From assembly GCA_937915455.1 (NCBI GenBank), contig CALDNN010000102.1:1-58464 (forward strand): 58,464 bases of DNA, read 5' to 3'. Positions 11,640 through 57,914 of the stretch are shown here, piece by piece; the first letter of the stretch is position 1, and every line of letters begins with the position of its first letter. The notes under the pieces are model-generated. The model made no database searches. It had not been told where the DNA came from and was given only the letters and a program-made list of their open reading frames with translations. Position numbers and translations under genes: made by a program. This stretch comes from an uncultured Clostridia bacterium. Its GTDB lineage: Bacteria > Bacillota > Clostridia > Christensenellales > CAG-138.

Positions 11640-11734
11640 GCATTCCAGGGCTCATTCGCGCCGCGAGCGATTTCCCGTATATACTTTGGGCTTGGGAACC
11701 TTCCCAAGTGCGTGGGAAGAGCCTGCCGCCCTGC

Positions 11735-12145: not shown

Positions 12146-12159
12146 AGCGCCCTCCCCTC

Positions 12160-27313: not shown

Positions 27314-28621
27314 ATGCGTCAGAATGACCAGAAACCGCGCATCGCGGTCATCGGTCTTGGCTATGTGGGATTGCCGCTGGCCGTGGCCTTCGCTAAAAAG
27401 GTGGAGGTTATCGGCTACGATACCAACAAAAGAAAGCTTGACACCTACAAGCGGGGCCTCGATCCGACCGACGAGGTGGGCAATGAGGGCATAAGAAACA
27501 CCACGGTGCGCTTTACGACGGATCCGTCTGCGCTCAAGGCGGCGAATTTCCTCATCGTGGCTGTTCCCACCCCCATCTTCCAGGATAAAACGCCGGATCT
27601 TAACCCCGTGCTCAGCGCTTGCCGTACTGTTGGCCGCAACCTGACGCCGGGGGCTACGGTGGTGTTTGAGTCCACCGTCTATCCGGGCGTTACAGAGGAG
27701 CTGTGCGTGCCCGCCATCGAGGAGGAATCGGGCCTCGTCTGCGGGAAGGATTTCTTCGTGGGCTATTCGCCCGAGCGCATCAACCCGGGGGATCGGCAGC
27801 ACACCCTATCCTCGGTGGTCAAAATCGTTTCCGGTATGGATGAGGCTACCTGCGCATACATTGCCGAGGTTTACGAAATGGTGGTGCCGGCGGGCATTTA
27901 CCGCGCCAGCAGCATCATGGTGGCGGAGGCTGCCAAATTGGCGGAAAACGCCCAGCGGGATATCAACATCGCCTTTATGAACGAGCTGGCCATGGTTTTC
28001 GACAGGCTCAGGATCAGCACGCGCGATGTGCTCGAGGCCATGAATACCAAGTGGAACGCGCTGCGCTTTGAACCGGGCCTAGTGGGCGGCCATTGCATCG
28101 GTGTGGATCCTTACTATTTCGTTTACCAGGCGGAAAACCTGGGCTACCACTCCCAGATCATTCTGGCCGGGCGCAATATCAACGACGGTATGGCCCATTT
28201 CGTAGCCGATGCGGCCATCAAGATGATGGTTCTGGCCGGCAAGCGCGTGCGGGAGGCCAAGGTATATATTTTGGGCGCTGCTTTTAAAGAAAATTGCCCG
28301 GATATGCGCAATTCCAAGGTAGCGGATATCATCCGCCGCCTTAGCGAATATAATATCGCCTGCGGCCTGGTAGATCCGCTTGTCGACGCGGAAGAGGCCG
28401 AGGCCGTCTTTGGCGTTCCTCTTACCCCCCTCTCAGAGGTGCGGGAGGCGGACTGCCTGATTTTCGCCGTGGCGCACGATTGCTTCCGCGCCCTCTCCTG
28501 CGAGCAGGTCGAGGCCATGTTCGCCCCCCTCCCCGCGGGCGAAAGGGTGATTGTGGATGTGAAGAGCATGTTCGATCGGGAATGCGCCGAGCAAAAGGGA
28601 TTTCTCTACTGGGAGCTATAA
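27314..28621 (+). CDS. nucleotide-sugar 6-dehydrogenase, UDP-N-acetylhexosamine type (TviB/WbpO/WbpA-like)
   Basis: IAVIGLGYVGLPLAVAF Rossmann N-terminus and catalytic-Cys motif GGHCIGVDPYY. The latter is my recollection of the HexNAc-dehydrogenase subgroup, as opposed to the Ugd-type GGSCFPKD. Confidence 0.8.
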   Translation: MRQNDQKPRIAVIGLGYVGLPLAVAFAKKVEVIGYDTNKRKLDTYKRGLDPTDEVGNEGIRNTTVRFTTDPSALKAANFLIVAVPTPIFQDKTPDLNPVLSACRTVGRNLTPGATVVFESTVYPGVTEELCVPAIEEESGLVCGKDFFVGYSPERINPGDRQHTLSSVVKIVSGMDEATCAYIAEVYEMVVPAGIYRASSIMVAEAAKLAENAQRDINIAFMNELAMVFDRLRISTRDVLEAMNTKWNALRFEPGLVGGHCIGVDPYYFVYQAENLGYHSQIILAGRNINDGMAHFVADAAIKMMVLAGKRVREAKVYILGAAFKENCPDMRNSKVADIIRRLSEYNIACGLVDPLVDAEEAEAVFGVPLTPLSEVREADCLIFAVAHDCFRALSCEQVEAMFAPLPAGERVIVDVKSMFDRECAEQKGFLYWEL

Positions 28622-28624
28622 TAA

Positions 28625-31075: not shown

Positions 31076-31090
31076 GAAAGGAGGGGAGAG

Positions 31091-32983
31091 ATGGACTGGT
31101 ATAACAAGCTCGTAAACGTTTTCACAGGCAAAAGGGAGTCTGAGCCAATCGAGGATATCCTCGTCAAGCCCAAGGCGGACCGGCGCATCTTTTCCCATGT
31201 ACCCGATCCCCTGCTGCAAAGAAAAGCAGGCGACCGCCGGGGCTCCACGGGTGCGGAGGGCCAGGCGGAAGTAGACGAGCGCCAACGGGTGGCCGACGCG
31301 GGCACCCGCTTTAGCGTGGATTACCCCGTGCGCGTGCGCGTGGTGCTGCCGGGCGGCGAGAGAAGGAGCTTCACTTGCCAGAGCGTGGATGTTTCCACCA
31401 CCGGCATGTTGCTGCGCATCGAGGGGGAGGCGCACTACCAGCTTTTGCAAAAGGCGGCGAAGATCCGCCTGCGCTTTGAGGTGGCCCCCGGCTCTATGCC
31501 CGAGGGCATGGAAATGAAGGTCAACATCGCAGCCCGGGCCGCCCGCTTCCAGATCAAAGAAGACGGCGCCTGGTTCTGCGGGCTGCAATTCAACGAAACC
31601 TTGGTCCAATACGCGGGCCGCCGCAAAAACGCGAATTTGGCGCTGATATCTACGCTTTTCCTCGTTATCATGGTGTTCGTTATCATCCTCATGCGGGCGG
31701 AGAGCGTGATCTACTTCAAGTTCAACAAATTCCTCTATACCTACAGCATCATCACGGCAGCCTTCCTGCTTTCGAGGTATCTGTTCGGCTCGCTTTATCG
31801 TGCCGTACCCGTGGATATGGATTACACCCCCGGCGTGACCATCATTATCCCCTGCTTCAATGAAGAGGCCTGGATCCACCGCACCATCACCAGCTGCATC
31901 AACCAGGATTACCCGCCGGATAAGCTGGAGGTGATCGTGGTGGACGACCATTCCAATGATAATTCCGTGGAAGCGATCAAGGCTACCATCGCCAAGCTTA
32001 AATCAGAAGGCGGCCGCTTCCAGGCGGATGGTCGGCTCAGCTACATCCTGCAGGACGCCAACCGCGGCAAGCGCGAGGCCCTTTGCCAGGGTGTTCTCAA
32101 GGCTAAGCACGAGCTGGTGGTGTTTGTGGATTCGGATAGCTTCCTCGAGCCTTTCGCCATTCGCAACCTGGTGCAGCCCTTTAAAGACCCCAAGATGGGT
32201 GGCGTGGCCGGCCGCACGGACGTGGCCAATACCTATACCAACGGCCTCACCAAGATGCAGGCCGTGCGCTACTATATCGCTTTCCGCATCATGAAGGCTG
32301 CGGAAGCCTATTTCGACGCCGTCACCTGCCTTTCCGGCCCGCTTTCCTGCTATAAAAAGCAGATCGTGATAGACCATATGGACGAGTGGATCAACCAGCG
32401 CTTCATGGGCCAGAAGGCCACCTTTGGCGACGACCGCGCCATGACCAACTTCGTGCTGCGTCGCCACCGCACGGCCTACCAGGATACGGCCGTGTGCTCC
32501 ACCATCGTGCCCAACCGCTACAGTATGTTCTTAAGGCAGCAGATGCGCTGGAAGCGCTCCTGGCTGCGCGAATCCATCACCGCGGGCAAGTTTATGTGGC
32601 GCAAGGAGCCGTTTATGTCGCTGTTCTTTTACATCGGCGTGCTGGTGCCTGTGGCCGCGCCCATCGTCGTGGTTTACAACCTGCTGTATGTGCCGCTGGT
32701 CTACGGCATTGTGCCCACCACCTTCCTGCTAGGCCTGTTGACCATGGCTATGCTGATGAGCTTTGCACAGATGTTCTTTCGCAGGAGCAGCACCTGGCTC
32801 TACGGCCTTTGGTTCTGCCTCTATTACGAGGCCGTGCTGCTTTGGCAGATGCCCGTTGCGTGGGTCACCTTCTGGAAATCCACCTGGGGCACCCGCATGA
32901 CGCCGGCGGACATCCGCGAAAAGGAACGCAGGGAGGAGAGAAAACGAGCAGAGGAGGCGCATTACGGCCATGCCGCTCTATAG
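31091..32983 (+). CDS. PilZ-like domain fused to a hyaluronan-synthase/NodC-like family-2 processive glycosyltransferase
   Basis: N-terminus has the QSVDVSTTGMLL (DxSxxG) PilZ signature. Then 2 TM segments, VVDDHSNDNS, FVDSDSF, TFGDDRAMTN, QQMRWKRSWLRES (QxxRW), and C-terminal TM segments. GAAAGGAGGGGAG RBS. Confidence 0.8.
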   Translation: MDWYNKLVNVFTGKRESEPIEDILVKPKADRRIFSHVPDPLLQRKAGDRRGSTGAEGQAEVDERQRVADAGTRFSVDYPVRVRVVLPGGERRSFTCQSVDVSTTGMLLRIEGEAHYQLLQKAAKIRLRFEVAPGSMPEGMEMKVNIAARAARFQIKEDGAWFCGLQFNETLVQYAGRRKNANLALISTLFLVIMVFVIILMRAESVIYFKFNKFLYTYSIITAAFLLSRYLFGSLYRAVPVDMDYTPGVTIIIPCFNEEAWIHRTITSCINQDYPPDKLEVIVVDDHSNDNSVEAIKATIAKLKSEGGRFQADGRLSYILQDANRGKREALCQGVLKAKHELVVFVDSDSFLEPFAIRNLVQPFKDPKMGGVAGRTDVANTYTNGLTKMQAVRYYIAFRIMKAAEAYFDAVTCLSGPLSCYKKQIVIDHMDEWINQRFMGQKATFGDDRAMTNFVLRRHRTAYQDTAVCSTIVPNRYSMFLRQQMRWKRSWLRESITAGKFMWRKEPFMSLFFYIGVLVPVAAPIVVVYNLLYVPLVYGIVPTTFLLGLLTMAMLMSFAQMFFRRSSTWLYGLWFCLYYEAVLLWQMPVAWVTFWKSTWGTRMTPADIREKERREERKRAEEAHYGHAAL

Positions 32984-34826
32984 CGACACAGACTACGGCA
33001 AGTATAAGGACCGCAAAAAGGCCTTGCGCAGCGTAAACGAGGTTTTGATCCTGCTGATTTTCGTGTGCATCCTCGTGCTGGCGCTCAGCACAACGCAGCC
33101 CTACGAGCCGATCGACAGCGCCCTAATCACCGGGCAGGATAACGGCTTTGTGGCCGTATCCTATTTCGGCACCGATATCGAGGGCAGCGAAACGCTCATC
33201 AGCTCCAAAAAGCTTGGGGAACACCTCACGGCCCTGCGGGATTCCGGCTACGTCACCATCACCCAGCAGGACATTTTGGATTACTACGAACACGGCACGC
33301 CATTGCCGGAGCGGGCCCTTTTCCTGATGTTTGAGGATGGGCGACGGGATACGGCGATCTTCGCGGAAAAGATCCTCGAGCGCCTCAATCAGAAGGCCAC
33401 CGTCCTTTCCTATGCGGATAAATTTGGCAACAAGGACGACAAATTCCTCTCCCCCAAGGAGCTGTTAACGCTGCAAAAGGATTCCTACTGGGAGCTGGGT
33501 ACCAACGGCTACCGTCTTTCCTACATCAACGTGTTCGACCGCTACAATAACTATTTCGGCCAGCTCAATTCCATCGAGTTCAACCGGGTCTCCAAATACG
33601 TGGATCGCAATTATAACCACTATTTGATGGATTACATCCGCGACGAGTACGAGATCCCGCTCGAGAGCAGGCTGGAAATGGAGGCCCGCATACAAGCGGA
33701 CTATGCCCTGATGGAAGAAATTTACGAAAAAGAGCTTGGCGAGGTGCCGGCTCTCTATACCCTTATGCACTCCAACACCGGCATGTTCGCCACCAATGAA
33801 AAGGTCAGCGCGGTCAACGAAAAAGAAATCCGCGAGACCTTCCGCATGAATTTCAACCGGGAGGGCTATTGCCTCAATACGGCCGATATCTCCCAATTCG
33901 ATCTTACGCGCATGCAGCCCCAGGCCTACTGGTCCGTCAACCACCTGCTGATGCGCATCTGGGACGACACCGGCCTCGACCAGGCCTTCCAATCAGGCGA
34001 TCGCTCGATTGCCGGCCGTTGGGAAGTGTGCGAAGGCGCGGCAGAATGTACCGAGGAGCAGGTCATCCTTACCACCCTGCCCAACGCCAGAGGCCTGATG
34101 CGCCTCAATGAGAGTGAAGGGCTTTACGACCTGAACCTACAGACGCGCCTTAGGGGCAACAAACTGGGCGGCCAATCGATCTACCTAAGGGCAGATGAAT
34201 CGCTCGATTCCTACGCCGTGGTGCGCCTCGAAAACAACTCCCTCATCATCGGCGAGAAATCCGGCGGCGAGGAAACGCGCCTGCTCGAGCTGGATCTCGA
34301 TGAATTTGATGGCACCGTTTGGCAGCAAAAGGAAGAGAACCGGCTGGAATCGCAGAAAATGGCGCTGGACGCCAAGCGAACCTATGGCGATAAAACCGCG
34401 CAAAACCAGCGCATCATCCAGGCATTGGAAGAGGGCCGGGCGGGCGCTTCCTCACAGAAAGGCAACGGCGACTACGTGCCCCCGCTGGAGCTGAAAACCA
34501 GCGGCAACCGTCTCCTTTCCCTCTCCCTCCTTGGCGAGCGGCTTACCGTATACATCGATAATAAACTGGCCGCAGAGGTACAGCTTAGCGGTGCGCACAG
34601 CGGTGCGGTCTACCTGGAAGCCGTCTCCATGCTGCAAGGCGCTTACAGCCAGCGCAACCTGGCGGACGATGTGTACGACGGCGTGTTTGAAGGGCTGGTC
34701 ATCTACCATGGCGAGGGGCGGAGCGACGCCCTGTACGATACACGGCCCACGGGCTTTCGGGCTTTTGGCGCTCAGGCCGGCAAGGCTTGGGACGGGCTCG
34801 TGAAATGGTTTATGGAAACGATCTAG
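32970..34826 (+). CDS. membrane-anchored protein with degenerate deacetylase-like N-domain and beta-rich C-domain
   Basis: TM segment VLILLIFVCILVLAL. ALFLMFEDGRRDT resembles the TFDDG motif of PgaB/IcaB-type CE4 domains, but no HxxxH follows. GAGGAGG RBS; 14-nt overlap with the synthase gene. Confidence 0.6.
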   Translation: MPLYSDTDYGKYKDRKKALRSVNEVLILLIFVCILVLALSTTQPYEPIDSALITGQDNGFVAVSYFGTDIEGSETLISSKKLGEHLTALRDSGYVTITQQDILDYYEHGTPLPERALFLMFEDGRRDTAIFAEKILERLNQKATVLSYADKFGNKDDKFLSPKELLTLQKDSYWELGTNGYRLSYINVFDRYNNYFGQLNSIEFNRVSKYVDRNYNHYLMDYIRDEYEIPLESRLEMEARIQADYALMEEIYEKELGEVPALYTLMHSNTGMFATNEKVSAVNEKEIRETFRMNFNREGYCLNTADISQFDLTRMQPQAYWSVNHLLMRIWDDTGLDQAFQSGDRSIAGRWEVCEGAAECTEEQVILTTLPNARGLMRLNESEGLYDLNLQTRLRGNKLGGQSIYLRADESLDSYAVVRLENNSLIIGEKSGGEETRLLELDLDEFDGTVWQQKEENRLESQKMALDAKRTYGDKTAQNQRIIQALEEGRAGASSQKGNGDYVPPLELKTSGNRLLSLSLLGERLTVYIDNKLAAEVQLSGAHSGAVYLEAVSMLQGAYSQRNLADDVYDGVFEGLVIYHGEGRSDALYDTRPTGFRAFGAQAGKAWDGLVKWFMETI

Positions 34827-34843
34827 AAAGGGACTCCCACCTT

Positions 34844-35998
34844 ATGTGCAAAACCAGATGGGCGGCCGCCCTCCTTTTGGTGGCGCTGATCGCCACCCTG
34901 TTTATAGCCTGCGCCCAACAGGCGCTTTTGCCCGTTTCTTCAGGGGCCATGCCCGGTGCGGAAACGATGGAAACGCCAGAAACGGAGGTACCCGGTACGG
35001 AGGTACCCGGTACGGAGGCGCCGGAATCTACCGCCTCCCCCGCTTTGCCGCAGGAGCAAGCGGAGGCCGCACGTCACCTTTCCGCTTGGGCTGTATATTG
35101 GGATACGGATAACGTGATCGCCGAGCTGGAAGCATTGGGCGCAGAGGAGCAGCTGGAGGCGCTCTGCTATTTCGAGGCCTTTTTCAACAGCCGGGGCGGC
35201 CTCGTGCTACCCGAGGCGATTCCCGCCCTGTATAAGGCCGTGCAAGCGCGTTTTTCGGCTGCGAAGTGGACGAGCTACCTCACCTTTGTTAATGACCTGC
35301 GGGATGACACGGGGCAATTCTCCCTCAAGGATACGGATCTGCTCTGGGCGCTGTTGGGCACGGACGAGGCCCTGTATAGCCATGTGGAAAGCGTGATCGC
35401 GCTGGCCAAGGCCCAGGGTTTTGACGGCGTCGAGATCGATTACGAATCTATCCGCGAAGATTTAGACCTTTGGGAGCGCTTCTTCACCTTTTGCAGCGCG
35501 CTCTATACGCGCACCCAGCAAGAGGGCCTAGCCCTGCGCGTGCTGGTCGAGCCCAACACCCCCTTCGAAAGCCTGACATTCCCCCCCGGGCCCACCTATG
35601 TAATGATGTGTTATAACCTATACGGCGGCCACAGCGGCCCCGGCCCCAAGGCGGATGCGGCCTTCATCCAAAAGCTCATGGCCCAAATGGCGGCGCTGCC
35701 TGGCCGCAAGGATTTCGCTATCGCCACCGGCGGCTACGACTGGTGCAATGACGAGGCTAAGCAGCTCACGGAGGAGGCGGCCGCGGAGCTGGCCGCCAAG
35801 CACCGGGCCGCCGCTAAGCGCGATGCTGCCAGCCGCGCCCTCTCCTTCCTCTATAAAGATGATGAGGGGCGCAGACACGAGGTATGGTATGCGGACCGGG
35901 AAACGCTGGATTATTGGGCGTCCATCATCCGCCAGGACAGCGGCAACACGGGCATCTCCATCTGGCGGCTGGGCGGCAACCTTAATGCCGTGCAATAA
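34844..35998 (+). CDS. GH18-like (chitinase-fold) lipoprotein
   Basis: Lipobox LFIAC, then a Glu/Thr/Pro linker. FDGVEIDYE matches the GH18 DGxDxDxE catalytic strand with the first Asp replaced by Glu. Start set at ATG 34844. Confidence 0.7.
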   Translation: MCKTRWAAALLLVALIATLFIACAQQALLPVSSGAMPGAETMETPETEVPGTEVPGTEAPESTASPALPQEQAEAARHLSAWAVYWDTDNVIAELEALGAEEQLEALCYFEAFFNSRGGLVLPEAIPALYKAVQARFSAAKWTSYLTFVNDLRDDTGQFSLKDTDLLWALLGTDEALYSHVESVIALAKAQGFDGVEIDYESIREDLDLWERFFTFCSALYTRTQQEGLALRVLVEPNTPFESLTFPPGPTYVMMCYNLYGGHSGPGPKADAAFIQKLMAQMAALPGRKDFAIATGGYDWCNDEAKQLTEEAAAELAAKHRAAAKRDAASRALSFLYKDDEGRRHEVWYADRETLDYWASIIRQDSGNTGISIWRLGGNLNAVQ

Positions 35999-37974: not shown

Positions 37975-40900
37975 ATGGAACAACAGCCATCAACTAAAAA
38001 TACAAAAAAAGCAAAAAAGGGCCGCAGATCCCATTCAATTATGAGTCGCATCCTGCATCCGGTGGTCATCGCCCTGTTGGTCCAGGCGGGGCTTTTTTCC
38101 GCCAACATCATTTGGGGGGGCACGCTGGAGAAGCTGAACCACAACGCCTTCGACATCCTCAACGGGCAAGTGGTCAACCGTCGGGATTATCTGGAGAACG
38201 AGATGCTTCAGCGTTGGTCGAACCTGAATCCGGCTGCGCACAATATCCGCCTTTTGTTTGATCGGCAGGCGGAGCAGGGCGCGGCAAGCGGGAACGCCCG
38301 CCGCAATGAGCTGCTGTTGCAAAGTGCGCCGGATCTGCTTGCTTTGCTGCGCCGCAATTCCGTTACGGGCGTTTTCCTCATCCTCACGGAGGGGGAGCCC
38401 CACGACGAAGCGGCGCGGATGCAAAAGCATGCCCTCTACATCCGCGATATGGATCCGACCACCAGCTCGGCGGATAATTCCGACCTGCTGCTTTTGCACG
38501 CGCCTACCCTGATTTCCAAGCAGCTGGATATTTCGTTGGATTCCCGCTGGCAATCCTACATCAGCTTTTCGCAGGACGAACCGGATAACTGGCTTTATTA
38601 CAGCAAGCCCTACGCAGCCGCCTTGGGCCACCCCGAGATCGGCGAGGAAGACCTCGGCTATTGGAGCCCCGCCTTCCGCGCCGAGGGGGATAGTTTAGAT
38701 GCCATCACCTACTCCATGCCGCTTCGGGATGCGGCGGGCACGGTGCGGGCGGTGCTGGGCGTGGAGATATCCACCGATTACCTGCGCAAGCAGATGCCCT
38801 ATCAGGAGCTCAACAGCGAAAAGCAGGGTATGTACCTGCTGGGCCTGGCCCGGAAGGATGAGCCGGCCTTTGAAGCGCAGCTGGCCACGGGGCCTGTCTA
38901 CCGCTATTTTTTCGGCGAGCCGAACGAGATGCGCTTCCTCCAATGGGAAGAATATACCAACGCCTATCAGGTGGCCGGCGATACCGCCCACCGAGACGGT
39001 GTGGTTTACGGCTGCATCCAATACCTCGATTTATATAATACCAACACCCCCTTTGAAAACGAGCGTTGGGCGCTGATCGGCATGTTGGAGCAGGAGCAGC
39101 TGCTGGGCTTCTCCAGCGGGATGATGTGGTCGTTCCTGCTGATCCTAGGGGTTTCCGTTCTGCTGGGCCTGGGCGTGGCCTGGGTGGCCAGCATATGGCT
39201 CACGCACCCCATCACGCGGCTGCTGCGCCAGCTGCGCGGAAACGAACCCCGTAGCCCCCTGGAGCTGGACAAGCTGATGATTTCCGAGATCGACGAGCTT
39301 TCCAGGGCCATTGAGGGCCTGAGCGCGCGCGTGGCCCTGGAGGCCAGCCGCCTCTCCCAGATCATCAATATATCCGGCGTGGAAATCGGCGCTTTCGAGG
39401 CCCTGCCGCGGGAGGGCCGGGTATTCTGCACGGCTCGCTTTTTCGAAATGCTGGGCATTGAAAAAGAGCTGGCAGAGGATGGCACCATCGACAGCCGCAC
39501 GTTTGACGCGCTGCTCGCCCCATTGCTGGCGCAGGCCGAGGAGGAAACGGAAGGCCGCGACACCAAGATTTTGCGCATCGCCCGCGAGCAGGAGGAAACG
39601 CGTTGGCTGCGGCTAAACATCGCCCGTGTGGATGGCCGCGTTACGGGCGTGATCAGCGATATCACGGAGGAGATCCTCAAACGCCGCCAGCTCGAGCGGG
39701 AACGGGATTACGACCCGCTCACGGACCTGCCCAACCGGCGCGCTTTCAGCGCGGCGCTGGCTAAGCTCTTTCAAGATCCGGATTCATTGGGCGTGGCGGC
39801 GCTGGTAATGCTGGATCTCGATAACCTCAAATTCATTAATGACTCTCACGGCCACGATTGCGGCGACGCCTACATCCGCAGCACAGCGGACGCGCTGCGC
39901 AAGTATGCACCGGCGCACGCGCTAATTGCCCGCATGTCCGGTGATGAGTTTTATGTGTTCTTTTTCGGCTATGCTTCCCGCGAGGCGGCCCAAGCGGATA
40001 TCTGCAGGCTCAAAGAGGGTTTAAGGCAATCGACCTTCCCCCTGCCGGATGAGACTCGCCTCAACATCCGCGCCTCCGCGGGCGTGGCCTGGTACCCGGA
40101 ACATTCGACTTCCTATGAAAAGCTGCTCAAATATGCCGATTTTGCCATGTACCAGGTCAAGAACACCACCAAGGGCGAGTTCGGTGAGTTCGATCTGGAG
40201 CGCTACAGCCAAGATTCCTTCCTGCTGCAAAACCAGGAGGAGATCAACCGCCTCATCGAGCAGGAATTGCTGACCTACCACTTCCAGCCCATCGTGGATG
40301 CGAAGCAGGGCACGGTATTCGGCTACGAGGCTCTGATGCGGCCGCTGCTCGAGAGCATCAAATCCCCTTCCAAGTTGTTGATGCTGGCCAAATCCCAATC
40401 CAAACTCTACAGCATCGAGCGGCTCACTTGGCGGCGCAGCCTGGCGCAGTTCGAAGCGCTACAAAATGTCGACCCCGAGGCCCGCCTGTTCGTGAATTCC
40501 ATCGCCAACCAACTATTGGCCGAAAGGGATTGCCAATACCTGAAGGAGCGCTTTGCGCATATGCTGCCGCGGGTGGTTATGGAGATCACGGAAGCGGAAC
40601 ACTCTACCGAAAGTGAAACCCGCATCAAGCTGGAGCGGGCTGCGGACTGGGGCTGCCGCATCGCCCTTGACGATTTCGGCACGGGCTATAATTCCGACGC
40701 GGCCCTACTCTCCATCAACCCCGATTTCGTCAAGCTGGATGTTTCCTTTGTGCGCAACATCGATACGGACGCCAACCGCCGCAAGCTCCTGCAAAACCTG
40801 CGCTCCTATGCGGATACCCGGGGCATCTACGTGATCGCGGAAGGCGTGGAGACGGCAGACGAGCTACATACCCTCATTGAGCTGGGAGTCGATTATGTGC

Positions 40901-41100
40901 AGGGCTACTACATCGCCAGGCCCAAGCCACACATCGAGCCCCTGCCCGCAGAGATCGTGCGGGAGATCCGCGAAACCTACGCCGCCATCCCGCCCTATGT
41001 GCCCAATGAAGGCTGCGCGCCCGCCCCGGCAACGCGCGCGGAAAATGCCAGGAACCAGCGCCATCAACAGCCGCCTTTCGGTGGCCCCGGGCAGCTTTAA
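37975..41100 (+). CDS. membrane sensor with large extracytoplasmic domain, PAS-like region, GGDEF (SGDEF) and EAL domains
   Basis: 1041 aa with two TM segments flanking about 330 aa. DPLTDLPNRRAF...ARMSGDEFYVFF (GGDEF domain). EAL domain has YEALMRP, FVNS, EITE, DDFGTGYNS, KLDVSF, EGVET and QGYYIARP. Confidence 0.9.
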   Translation: MEQQPSTKNTKKAKKGRRSHSIMSRILHPVVIALLVQAGLFSANIIWGGTLEKLNHNAFDILNGQVVNRRDYLENEMLQRWSNLNPAAHNIRLLFDRQAEQGAASGNARRNELLLQSAPDLLALLRRNSVTGVFLILTEGEPHDEAARMQKHALYIRDMDPTTSSADNSDLLLLHAPTLISKQLDISLDSRWQSYISFSQDEPDNWLYYSKPYAAALGHPEIGEEDLGYWSPAFRAEGDSLDAITYSMPLRDAAGTVRAVLGVEISTDYLRKQMPYQELNSEKQGMYLLGLARKDEPAFEAQLATGPVYRYFFGEPNEMRFLQWEEYTNAYQVAGDTAHRDGVVYGCIQYLDLYNTNTPFENERWALIGMLEQEQLLGFSSGMMWSFLLILGVSVLLGLGVAWVASIWLTHPITRLLRQLRGNEPRSPLELDKLMISEIDELSRAIEGLSARVALEASRLSQIINISGVEIGAFEALPREGRVFCTARFFEMLGIEKELAEDGTIDSRTFDALLAPLLAQAEEETEGRDTKILRIAREQEETRWLRLNIARVDGRVTGVISDITEEILKRRQLERERDYDPLTDLPNRRAFSAALAKLFQDPDSLGVAALVMLDLDNLKFINDSHGHDCGDAYIRSTADALRKYAPAHALIARMSGDEFYVFFFGYASREAAQADICRLKEGLRQSTFPLPDETRLNIRASAGVAWYPEHSTSYEKLLKYADFAMYQVKNTTKGEFGEFDLERYSQDSFLLQNQEEINRLIEQELLTYHFQPIVDAKQGTVFGYEALMRPLLESIKSPSKLLMLAKSQSKLYSIERLTWRRSLAQFEALQNVDPEARLFVNSIANQLLAERDCQYLKERFAHMLPRVVMEITEAEHSTESETRIKLERAADWGCRIALDDFGTGYNSDAALLSINPDFVKLDVSFVRNIDTDANRRKLLQNLRSYADTRGIYVIAEGVETADELHTLIELGVDYVQGYYIARPKPHIEPLPAEIVREIRETYAAIPPYVPNEGCAPAPATRAENARNQRHQQPPFGGPGQL

Positions 41101-49869: not shown

Positions 49870-51336
49870 TTATGTTGATCCTCGCTGCCCGGCCCGCATC
49901 CTCTTCATGTTGCGCCGGTATACAATATATACGATTAAAATGCTGACCATGGCGACTATTGGCAAAGTAAGCAGGGCTAAGAGAAAGTATAACCCCCAAG
50001 GCACCTGATCCTCAATGCAGCTTACGGTAAAGGTCAGCTGGTCTTGCGGCAGGCCCTCCATAGAAGCAAAGAATAAATCCTCTTCCAGCTTTTCGAATTC
50101 TACGGCTTCTGAACGCACATAGGTTTCATAATTCTCCGGCCTGTTTACGAACCACACCCAAACATTCAATGTGCCGAAGTCGCGGTAATGCCGGGCGGGC
50201 CCGGTGATATAAGAGTAGTCTGCCCGCATATCCCCTGTATTTCCAAAGGAATCCGGCATATGCTTATAGGTTACGCTTACTTCACGGGATTGCCCCGCTT
50301 CAAAAGGAATCTCGTATAGCAACAGGCCAGCCATCTTTTCATTGAACAGGCTCCTTAGTATTCCTCTAATCGAATCACATCCATAAAAATCCACGCCGCC
50401 GCCAAGCAGGGTCAGCAATTCACGTTCCCCAAAAGACTCCACGCCCTCGGGATAATATTCTCTAAATTCCTGCATACATACATTACCCAGGAACTCTTCC
50501 ATGGTCATGCTTTGAACCTGCACCAATTCCAGCCCCGCATTGGAGATTGGCGTTAGAGATGACTCATTCGGATAATTCCCGTCCATATCATATGCTTCGA
50601 TTTGGGCTTGCGACATATCGAAGCCGGCGGAAACCGCTAAACGTACTTGTCCGGAGGACCTTCTTTTATGAATCTCAATAACATAATCATTATTATTAGA
50701 TTTGCTTCTATAGGCCGTAGCTCCATCACTGGTATATGAAAAAATCCGCAGATTTTCCTCACGGAGACGCGTGATCTTTATATAATTCGCCCCTGACTGC
50801 CCTTGTAATTCATATATATTCAGCACCGCATCAAAATCATATGTTTCAGGATGGTACGGGACGGGATCATTGTAATAATCCAACAAGCTCTCAATCTCCA
50901 AGGATTGCGCGTATTCCTCGATCTCGTCATAAGATTTACGCGTCCACCTTTTTTTCTCCGCTAAATGACGCAGGCTGCTGATGAAGAGCGGTTCGGCATG
51001 TATCGCCTGCCCATCCACATGAACCTCTGCGTTTGTGAGGGCGTCTATATCATCCAGTATAAACAAAATTGGAAATGCCATCGTTATGCTTTGCGCCGCC
51101 CCATGGTTTCGCATTTGATAGGAGGCGGAAACATCCATAAAGGACGAGTCCTCTGCTTCAAAATGGATGTCAAAGCGAAGGTCCTCTTTCTCCACCCCGA
51201 TGTCGCAATCCTCCAAGACCCCCATGGTATAATGGGGGCCTTCGGAGAAATAATGAATTGGTGCGGAGTTTGCAAGAGCCGGCTGCGCAGCTAACAGGAT
51301 AGACACACAGAGCAAGATAAAAGCTATCTTTTTCAT
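49870..51336 (-). CDS. secreted, C-terminally membrane-anchored protein of unknown function
   Basis: 488 aa. Signal peptide MKKIAFILLCVSILLAAQPALA and C-terminal TM segment LYFLLALLTLPIVAMVSILIVYIVY with a basic tail. AAGGAGGCC RBS. Visibly lower GC than its surroundings. Confidence 0.75.
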   Translation of the reverse strand: MKKIAFILLCVSILLAAQPALANSAPIHYFSEGPHYTMGVLEDCDIGVEKEDLRFDIHFEAEDSSFMDVSASYQMRNHGAAQSITMAFPILFILDDIDALTNAEVHVDGQAIHAEPLFISSLRHLAEKKRWTRKSYDEIEEYAQSLEIESLLDYYNDPVPYHPETYDFDAVLNIYELQGQSGANYIKITRLREENLRIFSYTSDGATAYRSKSNNNDYVIEIHKRRSSGQVRLAVSAGFDMSQAQIEAYDMDGNYPNESSLTPISNAGLELVQVQSMTMEEFLGNVCMQEFREYYPEGVESFGERELLTLLGGGVDFYGCDSIRGILRSLFNEKMAGLLLYEIPFEAGQSREVSVTYKHMPDSFGNTGDMRADYSYITGPARHYRDFGTLNVWVWFVNRPENYETYVRSEAVEFEKLEEDLFFASMEGLPQDQLTFTVSCIEDQVPWGLYFLLALLTLPIVAMVSILIVYIVYRRNMKRMRAGQRGST

Positions 51337-51572: not shown

Positions 51573-51671
51573 TTTGCCGCCCCCGCTCCCCTCGCGGGGA
51601 GCGACGGCGTATACGGCTACCATGAAATGCGCATCTATATTTCAATCCCCGCTCCCCTCGCGGGGAGCGAC
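51573..51671 (-). CRISPR. minimal type I-C CRISPR array: 2 repeats, 1 spacer
   Basis: Minus-strand repeat GTCGCTCCCCGCGAGGGGAGCGGGGATTGAAAT (51671-51639). A 33-nt spacer at 51638-51606. A second repeat (51605-51573) has the same first 25 nt but a degenerate 3' end (GCGGCAAA instead of ATTGAAAT). Confidence 0.8.
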
Positions 51672-51688
51672 AATGGCGCAGGAGAACA

Positions 51689-52087
51689 TTCTTCCAGGCA
51701 GATTGCCTGCGCACAGAGCTGTAGCCGGTCGCCATCCATAGTCTTTGGCGCGCCTTTATTGTACTCCACAGGGACAGGCAGATACTTTTGTGCTTGCCCG
51801 CGTATGGTTACTCCATGCTCGCTTTGCCGGAACTCTACAACATCACACTGGCCATTTGCCATTAGGCGGGTGGAACGGATGGGCATGCCGCGGGAGATCA
51901 AAAGCTCCCCGCGCCGCTCCAAGCGATATGCATCATGCGCCCGCTCATGAAAAATGTGGCCTTCTATCGTGTAAAGGTTCTCGTTCCATTGCTGCTCAAT
52001 CTGCCGTAGCGCCCACTGCCTCTGGTAAAAGGCGAACGCCTAGATGCCCGAAATGGGAAGATAGGCTTCTTCCGACATATGATGCAT
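51689..52087 (-). pseudogene. cas4: cas4 pseudogene (in-frame TAG, 3' truncated at a CRISPR repeat)
   Basis: The frame reads MHHMSEEAYLPISGI*AFAFYQRQWALRQIEQQWNENLYTIEGHIFHERAHD...CDVVEF...PVPVEYNKGAPK...DRLQLCAQAICLEE. Stop codon at 52042-52040. Homology ends at about 51689, which is 17 nt before the repeat. Confidence 0.8.
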
Positions 52088-52089: not shown

Positions 52090-52977
52090 CTACGCCATGC
52101 GCATGCAGGTTACGTTTTGCGGCAACGCATCAAGGTCAATTTCCACCTCGTAATCTGCATAACTGCGGGTGGGAGACGGGGCCCCTTCCCTGCGATTGAC
52201 CGTGACGAGGTCAAAGAGCTTGTGGGCTGGGGCATTTCCAAGCTCGCTTTCGTGTTTGAATACGATTAGCTCCCGGAGCGCCATCTGCCCGCGTGCCGCG
52301 GAATGGTCATGTTCGAACATATTGATGATCGCCTCCCAGAGCAGTTTAAGATCACCTTCCGAAAAGCCCGTGACCTTTCTTGCGAGGTTGGCGGAAATAT
52401 GCCCGTGTGCTCGGTAGAGGCCGTAGGGAATAATGTATTTGCGGCCCATCTCCGTTTTTTTGCGCTCCGCATCCGCCTCGGTGGTAATGGCGGTACGAGT
52501 GATGGTGATCTCCTGCTGCGCGATGGGCTCAACGCTGCGCGCAAACCCAAGTTGCACCGGGCCACGCACCTGGCCGCAGTTAAGCGCCGCTTTTACAAAA
52601 GTAGTCATCACCGCACCGAACGTACGGATATCGTAAAAATTACCGCACATAAAATCGCGAATTCGCGCATCGATCCCGGGATCGGCTTTTTTATTCAGCT
52701 TCTTTTCATCAATTCCCAGACGGGTGTAGGCGAGCTGGTCGCTTGTGTTGAGCGGGACCCCTTCTTTAATATAAATCTGATAACCTTCCGCGTTCTCCTT
52801 CACGGTTTCCACATAGTTACGAATCTTACGTTTAAGGCATACATCGGTCACAAGGCCGTAGCCGGTTTCGGGATCCACGCGCGGCATATTGCCGGCATCC
52901 GGGTCGCCGTTGGGGTTGCCGTTTTCCACATCGAACAATATCACAAAATCATACCGATTTTTAATCGCTTCAGTCAT
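52090..52977 (-). CDS. cas7c: type I-C Cas7c (Csd2)
   Basis: 295 aa. NRYDFVILFDVENGNPNGDPDAGNMPRVDPETGYGLVTDVCLKRKIRNY is the classic Csd2 N-terminus. Confidence 0.92.
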   Translation of the reverse strand: MTEAIKNRYDFVILFDVENGNPNGDPDAGNMPRVDPETGYGLVTDVCLKRKIRNYVETVKENAEGYQIYIKEGVPLNTSDQLAYTRLGIDEKKLNKKADPGIDARIRDFMCGNFYDIRTFGAVMTTFVKAALNCGQVRGPVQLGFARSVEPIAQQEITITRTAITTEADAERKKTEMGRKYIIPYGLYRAHGHISANLARKVTGFSEGDLKLLWEAIINMFEHDHSAARGQMALRELIVFKHESELGNAPAHKLFDLVTVNRREGAPSPTRSYADYEVEIDLDALPQNVTCMRMA

Positions 52978-53008: not shown

Positions 53009-54817
53009 CTATTCGTTCACGGCAGGAGTTTCTGGGGCGGCTTCGTTGGATGCAGCGGGTTTCTTCTGGTAGAAGCGCTGCACCTGGTGGTGGTACCCAA
53101 GCAGAAACTGGCATTGTTCGGTATTGTTTAGCCGGGCGGGGAAAGCATCCCTATCGTTCGGCGCGGGGAGTCTTCCCATAAGGTCCAACACGAGGTTGCT
53201 GTAGATAATGCGCTTGCCTTCAGCTTTCATGCGGTTGAGGTATACGGGGTACTGCTTTAGCAGCTCGTTGAATATGAGGGCAGGCGTATCACAGGCAGTG
53301 CTGAAATACTTCTTTTTAATGTTCGCACCGATTTCCGTATCGCTGCTGTCCCTCTGGATAAATTCAAGCGCCGCGAACAACCGGCCCAGCACATAAGGGA
53401 GAACAGTGCAGTCTTCATTGAGAAACACTTTTGCTACCTCCTCTGTTTCGGGATCGTCCCCGTAGTTTTTTAGCAAATACGCTTTGAGAATCGCGGCCTT
53501 GCCGCGGGTAAGATCATGCTCCGCGTGCACGCGCAGCAGCACGTTCTGCATAAGCGCCTCCGGGTAATCGGCGTTGCTTAAAATCGCCTGGAGTACAGCG
53601 CCCGCAAGAAGCGGGGAAGCCGCACTATCCTTAGACATGGGGTGTACGGTTTCAAGCAGTAGCCAATAGGGGGTAAGATAGTCCCGCTCGTAGGGTGCTT
53701 TTGCAATTTCTAGCCGCGCGTAATGCGCCGCGATGTTTTGGAGCATGTTGCCGAAGGTATCCCGCAGGAAAAAGCGCACCGAAATGCGCGCGGCATTGGG
53801 CGCAAGCCCCAGCACATAGAAGGGCGTATCTTCGTTCAGCCCTTCCGCCGCGATGGGCAGGCCCTGCGTAACCTTTTTCATAATGCTGTTTAGCAGGGCG
53901 CTCTGATCCTCCTGCGGGGAGAGCATAACGGAAAAGAAATCGCTGTAATTCGGGTTCGCATCCTCGGCCCAGTAGACGATATTGCTATTTGCCAGGTACG
54001 CATTATGGGCGGGCTGGGAGAGTAGGTAGTTGAGCGCCGTTGCATAGGCAAAGGCCGCGTATTCGCTAACAGGTGCGTTGATGCTGGCGCTTAGGCCATA
54101 GGATTCATATGCGGCCGCATTAAAGGAAACAAGGTTTGCGCCTGCGCTTTGGGTATCCCGCACGCCTTTGATTTTAGGATGGAGCAGCGCGATGGGCTCG
54201 TCCGCCCCGCCCGTCACCAGGCATTGCATGCGCGTATCGCTTAGCTGCGCGTTTTTATACCGCACCCACGCTTCCTGCAGGTTTGGGTCATCCTGCGCAT
54301 AAGTCCCATCCGGCGCAACGAATATAAAATACCGCCCCGCCTTCATTTCCTCCATGAGCGCGGGGTCGGAAAGGGCCGGATGCGGTGTTTGCGGATCATA
54401 CCGGTCAAAATACGCACAGATTGCCCTTGCCGCGGGGGAGTTGACGCCCTCTAAAATCTTCCGATGCAGCTTTTTTGAGGCCTCGAAACATGCCGCAGTG
54501 CGCTGCTTATCGCCCTTATAGTCATACCCCAGCAGAAACAGCGCGTTATCGCATAAAAAGTTCGCCAGAATATTCACGCCGCGCACATAGGGCATGGGGA
54601 GCGTCATGGATTGTGGAACCTCCATCATCTTTTTGCCCACCTGTCTTTCTTGCTTCAAGGGCAAAACATGCGTGAGCGTTCCATCCTCCCGCAGGCAAAG
54701 GCCGTAGGAAACCTTGGCCTGCGCAAACCAGAGGGGCGGAACCCGTTCATCTTCCTGCAGCGTGTCCCGTGCCGCGTCCATGAGCGCATAGTAGCGCGCC
54801 AGAGCTTGCAAGATCAT
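53009..54817 (-). CDS. cas8c: type I-C Cas8c (Csd1)
   Basis: 602 aa. MILQALARYY...FAQAKVSYGLCLREDGTL N-terminus is typical of Csd1. ATGA overlap with cas5c. Confidence 0.88.
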   Translation of the reverse strand: MILQALARYYALMDAARDTLQEDERVPPLWFAQAKVSYGLCLREDGTLTHVLPLKQERQVGKKMMEVPQSMTLPMPYVRGVNILANFLCDNALFLLGYDYKGDKQRTAACFEASKKLHRKILEGVNSPAARAICAYFDRYDPQTPHPALSDPALMEEMKAGRYFIFVAPDGTYAQDDPNLQEAWVRYKNAQLSDTRMQCLVTGGADEPIALLHPKIKGVRDTQSAGANLVSFNAAAYESYGLSASINAPVSEYAAFAYATALNYLLSQPAHNAYLANSNIVYWAEDANPNYSDFFSVMLSPQEDQSALLNSIMKKVTQGLPIAAEGLNEDTPFYVLGLAPNAARISVRFFLRDTFGNMLQNIAAHYARLEIAKAPYERDYLTPYWLLLETVHPMSKDSAASPLLAGAVLQAILSNADYPEALMQNVLLRVHAEHDLTRGKAAILKAYLLKNYGDDPETEEVAKVFLNEDCTVLPYVLGRLFAALEFIQRDSSDTEIGANIKKKYFSTACDTPALIFNELLKQYPVYLNRMKAEGKRIIYSNLVLDLMGRLPAPNDRDAFPARLNNTEQCQFLLGYHHQVQRFYQKKPAASNEAAPETPAVNE

Positions 54818-55464
54818 TGGAACACCTCCACGCCGGAAAGATCCAGCACGCCATCGCGGAGCACCGCGCGGAAAAATCGGGGGCTGATATCTGCGGGGTC
54901 ACTATAATCCATGTCGTAGAGCATAAAGCCCAGGTCCCGTTCCCCCTCGTAGGCGGCTTTGCCTATGGGATTCTCCACGGCACGCACATCCGCAGGAAAT
55001 TCGCGGCATCCCAAATACGGTTGATGAAAGCACTGGCCCTTCTGTATCCGCCGCATGATAATGGCATAAAACTTATCCGCATTATCATCCGACGCGGTGG
55101 CCTCCGTAAGGTCAAAGTGCGCCTCGATAACATAACGCACATCCCGCAAGAGCAGCGAGGCGCGCTGCTGGATGTTTGCCGTGGTGCTGATATTCAGCGG
55201 TTCGTTGCTTCCCTTCATGACGGTGAGCGCATTGGCTGCGGAAAGCTTGGCGGATACCTCGTTACGGCGGATGTTGACAAACCGGATGGGCTCCATGACA
55301 TGGATCCTGTCAATCCTCCACCGGATGCCGGGATGCCAGTAGATCGCTTCCAGCAGCCCCCGCGCGGCGGAAGGCGTGATCATATCGTAGCTCACGCGCT
55401 CCACTTTGAGCTCCGGGCGTGAAAACAGCGCATACTGGCCGGAAACTTCCAGTATTACACCCAA
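54814..55464 (-). CDS. cas5c: type I-C Cas5c (Cas5d)
   Basis: ILEVSGQYALFSRPELKVERVSYDMITPSAARGLLEAIYWHP. Start set at TTG 55464, which lies 5 nt after GGGAGGTGA. The ORF-track GTG 55509 would overlap cas3. Confidence 0.88.
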   Translation of the reverse strand: MGVILEVSGQYALFSRPELKVERVSYDMITPSAARGLLEAIYWHPGIRWRIDRIHVMEPIRFVNIRRNEVSAKLSAANALTVMKGSNEPLNISTTANIQQRASLLLRDVRYVIEAHFDLTEATASDDNADKFYAIIMRRIQKGQCFHQPYLGCREFPADVRAVENPIGKAAYEGERDLGFMLYDMDYSDPADISPRFFRAVLRDGVLDLSGVEVFQ

Positions 55465-55499: not shown

Positions 55500-57713
55500 T
55501 CAGGCCCACACGCCTATTCCGGTATCCGGCGTACGAAGACCGATTTGCCTGTTATAAAGGGAAACATCGCGCAATACGGCAAGTTTATCATCCAGTACAT
55601 CCAAAACACCCGCCCCAAGCAGGGCAGCGTAAGCATTTTCATATACGTTAACGCTAAACCGCCCGGCATCTCGGAGCAGCTTTTGGCTGCGGAGTCCTTG
55701 CCTGAGATGGGTCGCAATCTCTATCGCAGCCGGCTCGTCATACAACACAACCAGAATTTGGCGCGTGCTCTGCTCAATCAGGCGGAAATTCTCCGCGATA
55801 GAAGCAAACGGGAAAGAAGGGGGACGGGATTTCACGCCATCTTCCAACCGGCCTACGATGTTTTCCTTATCCAAAGAAGAGCCCTTGTAACGATAAAGCT
55901 GTTCAAAGTAAGCACGGATGATGGAGGGGGATCCGACATCCTCGCATTCCTGCATCAGCTTATCCGCCACCTGAAAAGGCAACGCCAGGCTTGCGGGGAT
56001 GCGAGGGCTCTGATCCTGGACAAAACAGAACAGATGTACCGGGCTTTCTTCGATTGACCGCGTGCCTTCCCGGTTGCAGCGGCCCGCCGCCTGGATCATG
56101 GAATCCAGCCCGGCGCGCTCGCGGTAAACAGAAGGGAAGTCCAAATCCACCCCTGCCTCTATAAGACTGGTGGAAATGACTTTGCAGGGAATATTATCCT
56201 TAAGCCGTTGGCGGATGATCTCCAGCGTTCGCTTGCGGTGGAGCGGGTACATCAGCGTAGATAAGTGATAGCAGCCCTCTCCTTGCAGCAGTTCAAACAC
56301 CGCCTGCGCCTGCATGCGCGTATTCACGATGCAAAGCGTTTGATGCTCTCGGTTTAGCCGCCCCGCCAATGCTTCCGTGGAGAAGGCTTCCTTCTCTACA
56401 ACAAAGCGGGTTCGCCGAAAAACGGTATGGAGTTCCTCAAAATCCGGACAGATTTGAACCGGGCGCATTTCCTTTGGAAAATATGGATCCAGCGCGGGCT
56501 GCGTGGCGCTGCATAGCACCGCCGTGCAACGGTAGTTTTTCACAAGCTCCGCAATGGCGCGCACACAGGGAAGTAGGTAGGGCATGGGCAGCATTTGTGC
56601 CTCATCAAATATAACGACGCTGTTTGCGATGTTGTGAAGCTTTCTGCATTTTGATGGCCGGTTGGAAAAAAGCGACTCAAAGAACTGTACGGAGGTTGTA
56701 ACGACGATCGGGATATCCCAATTTTCGCTGGCGTGGCGTTTATAGAGGCGGTCTAAATTCCGGGTCTCTTCCGCGTCTTCATAGCCCGCGTTGCTGTGGT
56801 GCTCCAGTACTGCCTCATCCCCGAATATTTCCCGAAACACGCCCGCGGTCTGTTCGATGATATTTGTATAGGGGATCACATAGATGATCCGCCGCAGGCC
56901 CGGTTCCTCTGCATGGTGTAAAGCGTGGTACAAAGCAAAAGCCATGGAGGAAAGCGTTTTACCCCCTCCTGTAGGCACAGTGAGCGAATATAACCCCCGG
57001 GGAAGCTGCGCCGCCTCCCTGCAACGGGCGAGGATTTGCGCCCGTTTGCGGTTAAGTTCGTTTTTCGGCACTCCAAACGAGTCGAAATGCCGCTCCAGCA
57101 ATGTAAGCAGAGGCGTAAGCGGAAGCTCGTTCCGCCTAATCGGAGCGTTGTTCATAAACGCTTCCGTATCCAGATAATCCGCATCTACCAGGCAGGAAAA
57201 CAGCATCCGTGTCAGAAAGGAAAGCGAAAATCCGTGCCCTTCCAACGTAACGATGGGCGGAGGGGGCAGAACTGTGGAGGGAGGGAGACCAGCTTCATTA
57301 AGATAGCCGGAAATATCCCAGCCGTATTTGTTTTTCCTTTGCAGCTTTGCGCGCAATGTGGGCGCATCGGGCGTATCCGCGCTGTCGCCTCCATCCGGCA
57401 TACCGGCGTGGTGGCCTGCGGCACAATATGCAAGAAGATGGGTATTTGCCTGATAGAGCGCGATAGCCGCCGCCGCCGCATGCTCCGTTTTCGGGCCGCC
57501 GTTTAGAAGATACCGCTGAAACGCCGGTGCAGATTTCCCAATATCATGCACCAAACCCGCATGCTTTGCCCACGCTTCGCATCTGAATTGCCATGCAAAG
57601 CAGCCCGCAAGGTTACCCACGTCCTGTAAATGCTCGGAAAGCGGCTGGGTACGGCCATCCTCGCTTGTGTGGGCACTATAGCAAAAAGAAGCAGGGGGCG
57701 AACTAGAATGCAT
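55500..57713 (-). CDS. cas3: Cas3 HD nuclease/helicase
   Basis: 737 aa. HD domain (GLVHDIGK, AAGHHAG), helicase motifs TVPTGGGKT and VIFDEAQ, and SATQP. GGAGGA RBS before ATG 57713. Confidence 0.9.
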   Translation of the reverse strand: MHSSSPPASFCYSAHTSEDGRTQPLSEHLQDVGNLAGCFAWQFRCEAWAKHAGLVHDIGKSAPAFQRYLLNGGPKTEHAAAAAIALYQANTHLLAYCAAGHHAGMPDGGDSADTPDAPTLRAKLQRKNKYGWDISGYLNEAGLPPSTVLPPPPIVTLEGHGFSLSFLTRMLFSCLVDADYLDTEAFMNNAPIRRNELPLTPLLTLLERHFDSFGVPKNELNRKRAQILARCREAAQLPRGLYSLTVPTGGGKTLSSMAFALYHALHHAEEPGLRRIIYVIPYTNIIEQTAGVFREIFGDEAVLEHHSNAGYEDAEETRNLDRLYKRHASENWDIPIVVTTSVQFFESLFSNRPSKCRKLHNIANSVVIFDEAQMLPMPYLLPCVRAIAELVKNYRCTAVLCSATQPALDPYFPKEMRPVQICPDFEELHTVFRRTRFVVEKEAFSTEALAGRLNREHQTLCIVNTRMQAQAVFELLQGEGCYHLSTLMYPLHRKRTLEIIRQRLKDNIPCKVISTSLIEAGVDLDFPSVYRERAGLDSMIQAAGRCNREGTRSIEESPVHLFCFVQDQSPRIPASLALPFQVADKLMQECEDVGSPSIIRAYFEQLYRYKGSSLDKENIVGRLEDGVKSRPPSFPFASIAENFRLIEQSTRQILVVLYDEPAAIEIATHLRQGLRSQKLLRDAGRFSVNVYENAYAALLGAGVLDVLDDKLAVLRDVSLYNRQIGLRTPDTGIGVWA

Positions 57714-57914
57714 AGTCTATCCTCCTACAGGCGGTAGTTTAATATACATATTCGGATTATAAGAACTTTTCAATTTAGATGTCCAGGGTCTTGTTTTGCT
57801 TATATGATGAATGGCTGACTTTCGGAATAATCCCCTATTGGCATGTGGCTGTATGTTGGCAGAATCATATACGGATAATGGTTTCTTTATAAATAATCTG
57901 TAGTAATACTATTC

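Follow-up and report, generated by a model that had tools for sequence, protein, structure and literature searches.

Positions 1-58,464 (58,464 nucleotides, nt) of contig CALDNN010000102.1 (assembly GCA_937915455.1, from an uncultured Clostridia bacterium), called the window below, carry a type I-C CRISPR-Cas cluster on the minus strand (57713-52090) in which cas3, cas5c, cas8c and cas7c are all intact, followed by a remnant of cas4 that passes directly into a CRISPR repeat. We read this arrangement, with a probability of about 0.8, as the product of a genuine chromosomal deletion, which would have left an adaptation-dead locus with constrained interference genes and one CRISPR RNA (crRNA) unit, predicted still to interfere. 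By sequence comparison, at least 1,736 bp were lost: cas1, cas2 and the leader in full, together with the 3' portion of cas4.

Deletion junction and intact relatives

The mapping used metagenome contigs located by exact-protein look-up; the GTDB species representatives held no close relative, their best Cas7c being 77% identical. Contig L001 (Logan SRR29988989), retrieved with the window Cas7c, combines an identical Cas7c with a complete cas3-cas5-cas8c-cas7-cas4-cas1-cas2 locus, and beyond cas7 it has cas4 (222 amino acids, aa), cas1 (343 aa), cas2 (96 aa), a 156-nt leader and then the same repeat as the first repeat of the window (R1). Window and L001 share 97.8% DNA identity from 57865 to 51671, where the alignment ends. 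Three further intact relatives, L090 (SRR22477850, 99% identity), L092 (GCA_040769605.1, 87%) and L091 (JGI 3300042616, 80%), stop aligning with the window at that very base. An earlier reading made from the letters alone (the sequence-only reading) had held that cas4 is truncated and fused to a CRISPR repeat, and had suggested mapping the endpoints on intact type I-C relatives; the four relatives bear this out by diverging together at 51671, and a separate contig described below (L084) carries the same junction.

The junction lies at 51671-51672 on the minus strand and joins cas4 ...GCGCCATT(G) to the repeat (G)TCGCTCC, that is, cas4 nt 418 to repeat nt 1, with one G (51671) attributable to either side. 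There, all four intact relatives read ...CCATTG|ATTGCG and the window reads ...CCATTG|TCGCTCC. Over a longer span the relatives have ...CTGGAAGAAATGTTCTCCTGCGCCATTG|ATTGCGCC... (with four substitutions in L091) where the window has ...CTGGAAGAA-TGTTCTCCTGCGCCATTG|TCGCTCCCC..., and the intact-type continuation at this site is ...CCATTGATTGCGCC.

Relative to L001, the missing segment measures 1,736 bp if R1 was the leader-proximal repeat, and about 66 bp more for each repeat-spacer unit that was lost with it; R1 may have headed an array with a single spacer or have stood further from the leader. Searches of the window by tblastn with the L001 Cas1 and Cas2 and by blastn with the L001 leader detected none of the three, and past cas7c only the disrupted nt 1-418 of cas4 represent the cas4-cas1-cas2 module that L001 has in this position. 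The sequence-only reading was thus right that cas1, cas2 and leader are missing after cas4. Its picture of a deletion between cas4 and a distal spacer holds for the truncation of cas4 and the loss of adaptation module and leader, but the array endpoint falls at the 5' edge of a repeat and not within a spacer.

The same junction occurs in contig L084 (ENA ERZ27283066, MEGAHIT k119, 8,146 nt), in which everything from 51994 onwards, comprising cas4 remnant, junction, R1, spacer, terminal repeat (R2), trailer and next genes, has 100% identity to the window. Since the whole array is 99 nt long, single 119-mers bridge cas4 to the trailer, and because the two sides share only 1 nt, the junction is not a k-mer or de Bruijn artefact. 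Two other contigs, L002 (from the same ENA sample as L084) and L003 (SRR27294705), are 100% identical to the window over the region holding two of the cas4 lesions described below, the TAG codon and the Cys-to-Tyr change. L089 (ERZ724041), whose sequence opens on the final base of R1, shares spacer, R2 and trailer with the window; L086 (SRR28678183) begins at R2 and carries R2 and trailer. Exact-protein look-ups of four possible open reading frame (ORF) calls across the junction returned no recorded match.

Of the relatives in NCBI, L092 (JAXGKT010000003.1, 2736-14700) stands closest to the locus (87% nt identity). Every one of its cas genes is in fragments and its repeats have many 1-nt indels, which looks like long-read consensus error. 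Its array spans about 4.3 kb (10443 to ~14700), and a phage-integrase gene lies just upstream of its cas3.

The cas4 remnant

The cas4 pseudogene (51672-52087, minus strand) starts with an ATG at 52087, three bases past the cas7c stop, and retains nt 1-418 of 669, or 139 codons plus 1 nt (62% of the gene). It matches TIGR00372 with E=1.8e-12 and 47.4 bits (cut-off 65) over profile positions 3-112 of 180, and its residues 1-133 are 95% identical to the intact 222-aa Cas4, which upholds the recognition of a cas4 frame past cas7c; a Pfam search of the remnant gave no match. As judged from these alignments, homology to cas4 is certain, but what remains is a fragment and falls short of a full-length Cas4 by TIGR00372 or PF01930.

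Several lesions lie within the fragment. A nonsense codon (Q16*) stands at 52042-52040, where the window has TAG and relatives have CAG, and Cys21 has become Tyr (TAC at 52027-52025, from TGC>TAC at 52026), giving FAFYQRQW here and FAFCQRQW in relatives; the sequence-only reading had singled out both. There is a Glu99Gln change (E99Q) at 51790, and Lys110 has become Asn (AAT at 51760-51758, from AAA>AAT at 51758), turning the VEYKKG of relatives into VEYNKG, a change derived on the window branch. Finally, an A-run has lost 1 nt (GAAGAAATG>GAAGAATG, 51690-51689), which causes a frameshift. Cas4 is a RecB-like nuclease of the PD-(D/E)xK type that binds a 4Fe-4S cluster through four cysteine ligands, one N-terminal and three C-terminal; Cys21 is presumably the N-terminal 4Fe-4S ligand (FxFCxRQW), and Lys110 we take to be the lysine of the RecB-type ExK motif. 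None of the four ligands is left, Cys21 being Tyr and the C-terminal cysteine region (CRACSFADVC in L001, with three Cys) having gone with the 3' 251 nt of the gene. In place of an uninterrupted frame with a D...ExK motif, the remnant has VEYNKG, the TAG at codon 16 and the -1 frameshift.

The frameshift also accounts for where the sequence-only reading ended the gene. It had seen homology stop at 51689, after about 133 codons, with foreign sequence beyond. Protein-level homology does end there, at ...CLEE, because the 1-nt deletion shifts the frame; DNA homology runs on to 51672. The 17 nt after the frameshift (TGTTCTCCTGCGCCATT), taken by that reading for a residual spacer fragment, match cas4 of L001, L090 and L092 at 17/17 positions (13/17 in L091), and because of the full match to three intact relatives we assign them to cas4.

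Interference genes and selection on the locus

All four interference genes score above the curated NCBIfam type I-C cut-offs, and the matching Pfam families were also found. On the minus strand, cas3 (55500-57713) encodes 737 aa with HD nuclease and helicase (TIGR01596, 84 bits; TIGR01587, 115 bits), of which 734/737 are the same as in L001. The 216-aa cas5c (54814-55464; TIGR01876, 187 bits) is bounded by the gene call in the identical contig L002, and its open frame reaches back to a GTG at 55509. The other two signature genes of the subtype besides cas5c are cas8c/csd1 (53009-54817), which encodes 602 aa (TIGR01863, 377 bits), and cas7c/csd2 (52090-52977), which encodes 295 aa (TIGR02589, 358 bits), all 295 the same as in L001. 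No cas6 is present at the locus, nor any additional ORF from cas3 to the array.

We polarised substitutions with L091 and L092 as outgroups. On the window branch, the four interference genes together acquired 27 synonymous and 10 non-synonymous changes, whereas the cas4 remnant acquired no synonymous change, three non-synonymous changes, one nonsense mutation and one frameshift (0:4 vs 27:10, one-sided Fisher test, P ~0.01). Derived change in the remnant is about 1%, and synonymous divergence on the same branch is roughly 2%. Measured against L001, dN/dS was 0.07 for cas3, 0.26 for cas5c, 0.26 for cas8c, 0 for cas7c and 0.72 for the cas4 remnant. The interference genes thus show far fewer non-synonymous changes than neutrality predicts, which suggests, on small numbers, that they stayed under selection after the death of cas4.

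As the simplest order of events we infer a deletion followed by neutral decay of the cas4 stump. The deletion would have taken the 3' 251 nt of cas4, cas1, cas2, the leader and possibly leader-proximal repeat-spacer units. The stump would then have acquired the nonsense codon and the frameshift and lost the N-terminal Fe-S cysteine and the ExK lysine.

The cas8c gene is much more diverged than its neighbours, with 95.5% nt identity to L001 against 99.3% for cas3 and cas7. It differs from L001 by a 15-nt in-frame indel near 53344, and on the L001 branch it has 29 synonymous and 27 non-synonymous changes. This divergence may come from recombination or from diversifying pressure on the large subunit.

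Repeats, spacer and predicted crRNA

What is left of the array agrees with the sequence-only description: one full repeat, one 33-nt spacer and a terminal repeat with a degenerate 3' end, all on the minus strand. R1 (51639-51671, 33 nt) is a full type I-C consensus repeat (GTCGCTCCCCGCGAGGGGAGCGGGGATTGAAAT, 3' end ATTGAAAT), and the 30 nt that the L001 contig has of its own first repeat agree with it throughout. The sole spacer (51606-51638, 33 nt) reads ATAGATGCGCATTTCATGGTAGCCGTATACGCC. The first 25 nt of R2 (51573-51605) equal those of R1 and its last 8 nt are degenerate (GCGGCAAA vs ATTGAAAT). The shared 25-nt core GTCGCTCCCCGCGAGGGGAGCGGGG therefore stands at 51671-51647 and 51605-51581, where 0 such matches are expected by chance, and has no third copy in the window. 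A hairpin is predicted in both repeats and is unaltered in R2. Of the features of type I-C arrays (32-33-nt hairpin repeats ending in ATTGAAA(C/T), and an AT-rich leader), the repeat type and hairpin are present, the repeats number only two and the leader is absent. Rfam gave for R1 just an uninformative sub-threshold match to CRISPR-DR9 (17.6 bits, threshold 45).

R2 and the trailer recur in contigs L084, L086 and L089, and because they recur together with the downstream gene in other metagenome contigs, we take them to be the native distal end of the array. The R2-trailer sequence had 0 matches in JGI metagenomes.

Exact searches with the spacer gave no credible target in JGI metagenome contigs or IMG/VR, and searches of IMG/VR that allowed N at every 6th position or used TTC plus seed gave none either. 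Against GenBank phages and PLSDB plasmids, blastn returned chance matches of 17-22 nt (E>=0.9) and nothing else, and no target was found within the window.

The leader normally carries the array promoter. The sole promoter-like site in the right orientation lies upstream of cas3 (57756-57785, minus strand; TGGACA-18-TATAAT, 11/12 consensus matches) and is likely, from its consensus match alone, to be the promoter of the cas operon; no convincing terminator was seen between cas7c and the array. R1, spacer and R2 would thus be transcribed by read-through, at the end of the mRNA of the cas operon. The Cas5c protein of type I-C systems cleaves every repeat hairpin at its 3' base. Cutting at both hairpins would here take an 11-nt 5' handle from R1 and a 3' hairpin from the first 25 nt of R2, and because those 25 nt are unaltered, the degenerate end of R2 should not matter. 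Judging from gene content and repeat structure, the locus is probably still interference-capable, and would work as an interference-only system with one fixed guide against a single target. It would acquire no new spacer unless Cas1-Cas2 were supplied from elsewhere in the genome.

Loss of adaptation genes in related loci

Among 50 related type I-C loci with enough downstream sequence, 46 have cas4-cas1-cas2. Two others, L059 and L023, independently lack cas4, cas1 and cas2 and keep full-length interference genes and arrays. By gene content, then, members of this group have repeatedly lost the adaptation module and kept interference genes and array. The window shares with the canonical type I-C systems (Dvulg/CASS1; L001, L090-L094 and the 46/50 loci) the gene order, orientation and four interference genes, as well as the 33-nt repeat with GC hairpin and ATTGAAAT 3' end and the degenerate terminal repeat. 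It differs from them in having no 3' part of cas4, no cas1, cas2 or leader, a single spacer, and an array that abuts cas4 coding sequence. Like L059 and L023, it has full-length interference genes, a retained array and no cas1, cas2 or intact cas4, but the endpoints differ, and only the window keeps 62% of cas4, one spacer and a repeat-flush junction.

In L059 (CADAPH010000028.1, Ruminococcaceae RUG13498, 9127-9920), cas3, cas5, cas8c and cas7 are full length, cas4, cas1, cas2 and leader are missing, and an array of 12 visibly mutated repeats begins 5 nt past the cas7 stop. We considered this locus as a second flush junction and rejected it, as the 5 nt between cas7 stop and repeat are not cas4 according to L093 and L094, the closest intact relatives of L059 (Cas7 94% aa and 84% nt identity). 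L023 (DIWE01000011.1, Clostridiales UBA6114, 10885-12400) has no cas4 or cas1 and little of cas2: the last ~20 cas2 codons (NKVEHIGAKPSFDVEGALIL, then the stop codon) come about 10 nt past its cas7 stop and are followed by the leader and a 19-repeat array. Two more loci show partial damage: in L021 (10888-11956) Cas4 matches residues 2-106 and Cas1 from residue 25, and in L029 (3317-4198) Cas4 is missing and the Cas1 match, directly behind cas7, starts at residue 54.

Origin of the junction and alternative explanations

As the default molecular cause of the breakpoint we assume illegitimate recombination at the 1-nt microhomology, possibly after self-targeting damage. The alternative with the best odds, though we hold it doubtful, splits the loss into several steps: escape from autoimmunity, or neutral deletion, removed the cas4 3' part, cas1, cas2 and leader, and the array was shortened separately by recombination between repeats. 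Related loci have lost the module with other endpoints, L023 keeping its leader and 19 repeats and L059 12 repeats, and both spacer loss by inter-repeat recombination and cas loss under self-targeting are well documented (PMC6990116). No sequence feature of the window, however, demands more than one event. Deletion of cas genes or spacers as an escape from autoimmunity (PMC6990116) has the same outcome, a partial CRISPR-Cas deletion; it usually costs the interference genes, whereas the window has kept those, with no self-targeting spacer present or inferable.

The position of the junction is suggestive of a boundary-specific event, although this is a single case. An array endpoint placed at random would fall flush with the 5' edge of a repeat in 2 of 66 positions (~3%, the shared G allowed for). 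That the junction is the fossil of a boundary-specific reaction, either self-excision by Cas1-Cas2 or recombination with a self-spacer from cas4, is in our judgement unlikely. If true, the locus would be a natural case of a CRISPR system undone by its own adaptation machinery or memory.

The self-spacer version supposes that a cas4-derived spacer of about 34 nt, in the same orientation, underwent homologous recombination with its source in cas4, which deleted what lay between. It predicts cas4 flush against the 5' edge of the next repeat, as seen, and the former spacer would include the sole indel of the remnant, 18-19 nt away from the junction. Varble et al. are said to have shown in 2019, in staphylococcal phages, that spacers can recombine with protospacers, and Levy et al. 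reportedly found in 2015 that in E. coli the region beside an active array is a hotspot of spacer capture. But no TTC protospacer-adjacent motif (PAM) was seen, on inspection of the sequences by eye, 32-36 nt upstream of the junction; 0 of 1,246 spacers in 55 related type I-C arrays match their own cas locus; and the exact-edge junction was seen once, the similar L059 junction having 5 non-cas4 nt. We consider this course of events quite improbable.

Still harder to credit is a junction made by the integrase itself, in which Cas1-Cas2 used a 3'-OH in cas4 (...CCATT-3') at the leader-repeat border and so excised the adaptation genes and leader. Half-site integration by Cas1-Cas2 proceeds by attack of a 3'-OH nucleophile on that border, and the polarity and position found here, with the 3' end on repeat G1 of the transcribed-sense strand, are those of a leader-side transesterification product. 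If R1 was the first repeat, the deletion would begin with cas4 nt 419, end with the final base of the leader and measure exactly 1,736 bp. Yet the evidence is purely positional, and a one-spacer ancestor is needed; the L001 contig ends 30 nt into its first repeat, which at k=31 would suggest at least two full repeats in that sample. We know of no documented in-vivo excision of this kind by an integrase. The odds of it are slim.

A chimeric join or repeat collapse during assembly, creating the cas4-repeat fusion or shortening the array or both, is a very remote prospect. CRISPR arrays are classic sites of assembly breaks, the related contigs L001, L086 and L089 end in or beside repeats, and L002 and L084, from the same sample, overlap by exactly 119 nt in the cas4 remnant (51876-51994), an overlap that points to branching of the assembly graph, perhaps caused by a related strain occurring alongside. 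Against this, a single shared nucleotide between cas4 and repeat offers no k-mer overlap that could join them, a k=119 contig runs from cas4 through R1, spacer and R2 to the trailer in 100% identity with the window, and the 25 nt common to R1 and R2 are below the length for collapse at usual k. L002 ends beside 51875, a site that differs between window and L001.

We give next to no credence to a regulatory mini-array, in which a crRNA-like RNA would repress a promoter by partial complementarity. The size of the two-repeat unit and its place in the cas operon resemble CreA/CreR-like modules. The repeats of those modules are degenerate; R1 matches the consensus perfectly, R2 occurs as the native terminal repeat in other strains, and the window, including the cas3 promoter region, holds neither a TTC-flanked 8-14-nt seed nor a match with <=9 mismatches, so that no PAM-flanked partial promoter target was found there. 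A deletion running from cas4 to a point inside a distal spacer, with 17 nt of that spacer preserved, would fit the end of protein-level Cas4 homology at ...CLEE and can be dismissed, since those 17 nt are the next cas4 bases in L001, L090 and L092 (chance ~4^-17).

Genomic surroundings

Directly past the array trailer lies an ORF of 488 aa (49870-51336, minus strand) with a lipoprotein-like N-terminus (MKKIAFILLCVS...) and a good ribosome-binding site. It has no Pfam or NCBIfam match, and the identical protein occurs on six metagenome contigs, one of them a 'fermentation metagenome'. The surrounding window is ordinary chromosome, with an Rnf complex, ABC transporters, an exopolysaccharide cluster and c-di-GMP enzymes. 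The polysaccharide cluster and an adjoining 1,041-aa GGDEF-EAL protein together take up 27314-35998 and 37975-41100; the products of the cluster are a UDP-sugar dehydrogenase, a large protein with a polysaccharide-deacetylase domain, a NodC/PgaC-like glycosyltransferase and a PgaB-like protein. A perfect tandem repeat (15-nt x 2.5) stands at 34982-35018. The host belongs to the Clostridia and is uncultured; for its RnfC, the best named relatives (<=76% identity) come from 'Clostridia bacterium' metagenome-assembled genomes.

Discussion

Several points weigh against our interpretation of the locus as the product of a genuine deletion that still interferes. The junction is supported at the level of assembled contigs, and L084 and the window possibly go back to one biological sample, in which case L084 would not be independent evidence. 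The absence of cas1 and cas2 covers the 58-kb window, and a second adaptation module or further arrays may exist elsewhere in the genome. Transcription, processing and interference of the mini-array are predictions only, and its spacer has no match in the window, GenBank phages, PLSDB plasmids, IMG/VR or JGI metagenome contigs. The low dN/dS of the interference genes could largely be older than the deletion, and as all contigs of the deleted lineage are 100% identical, they give no direct measure of its age.

Loss of CRISPR-Cas components is in general well known (PMC6990116), and loss of adaptation genes with the interference genes kept is an already familiar kind of decay. The correction of the annotation is of modest practical value: there is no spacer remnant, and cas4 carries an extra frameshift and Lys110Asn as an added lesion.

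CRISPR-Cas loci that lack an adaptation module are widely reported in comparative surveys. Common as they are, they are usually described as a state, without the causal event; here both breakpoints are mapped to the base, because an intact relative of 97.8% identity exists. The locus is also a clean case for asking whether a leaderless, operon-embedded single-spacer unit gives a functional crRNA. Constraint on the interference genes alongside decay of cas4 fits the idea that interference-only loci holding a frozen memory can be maintained.

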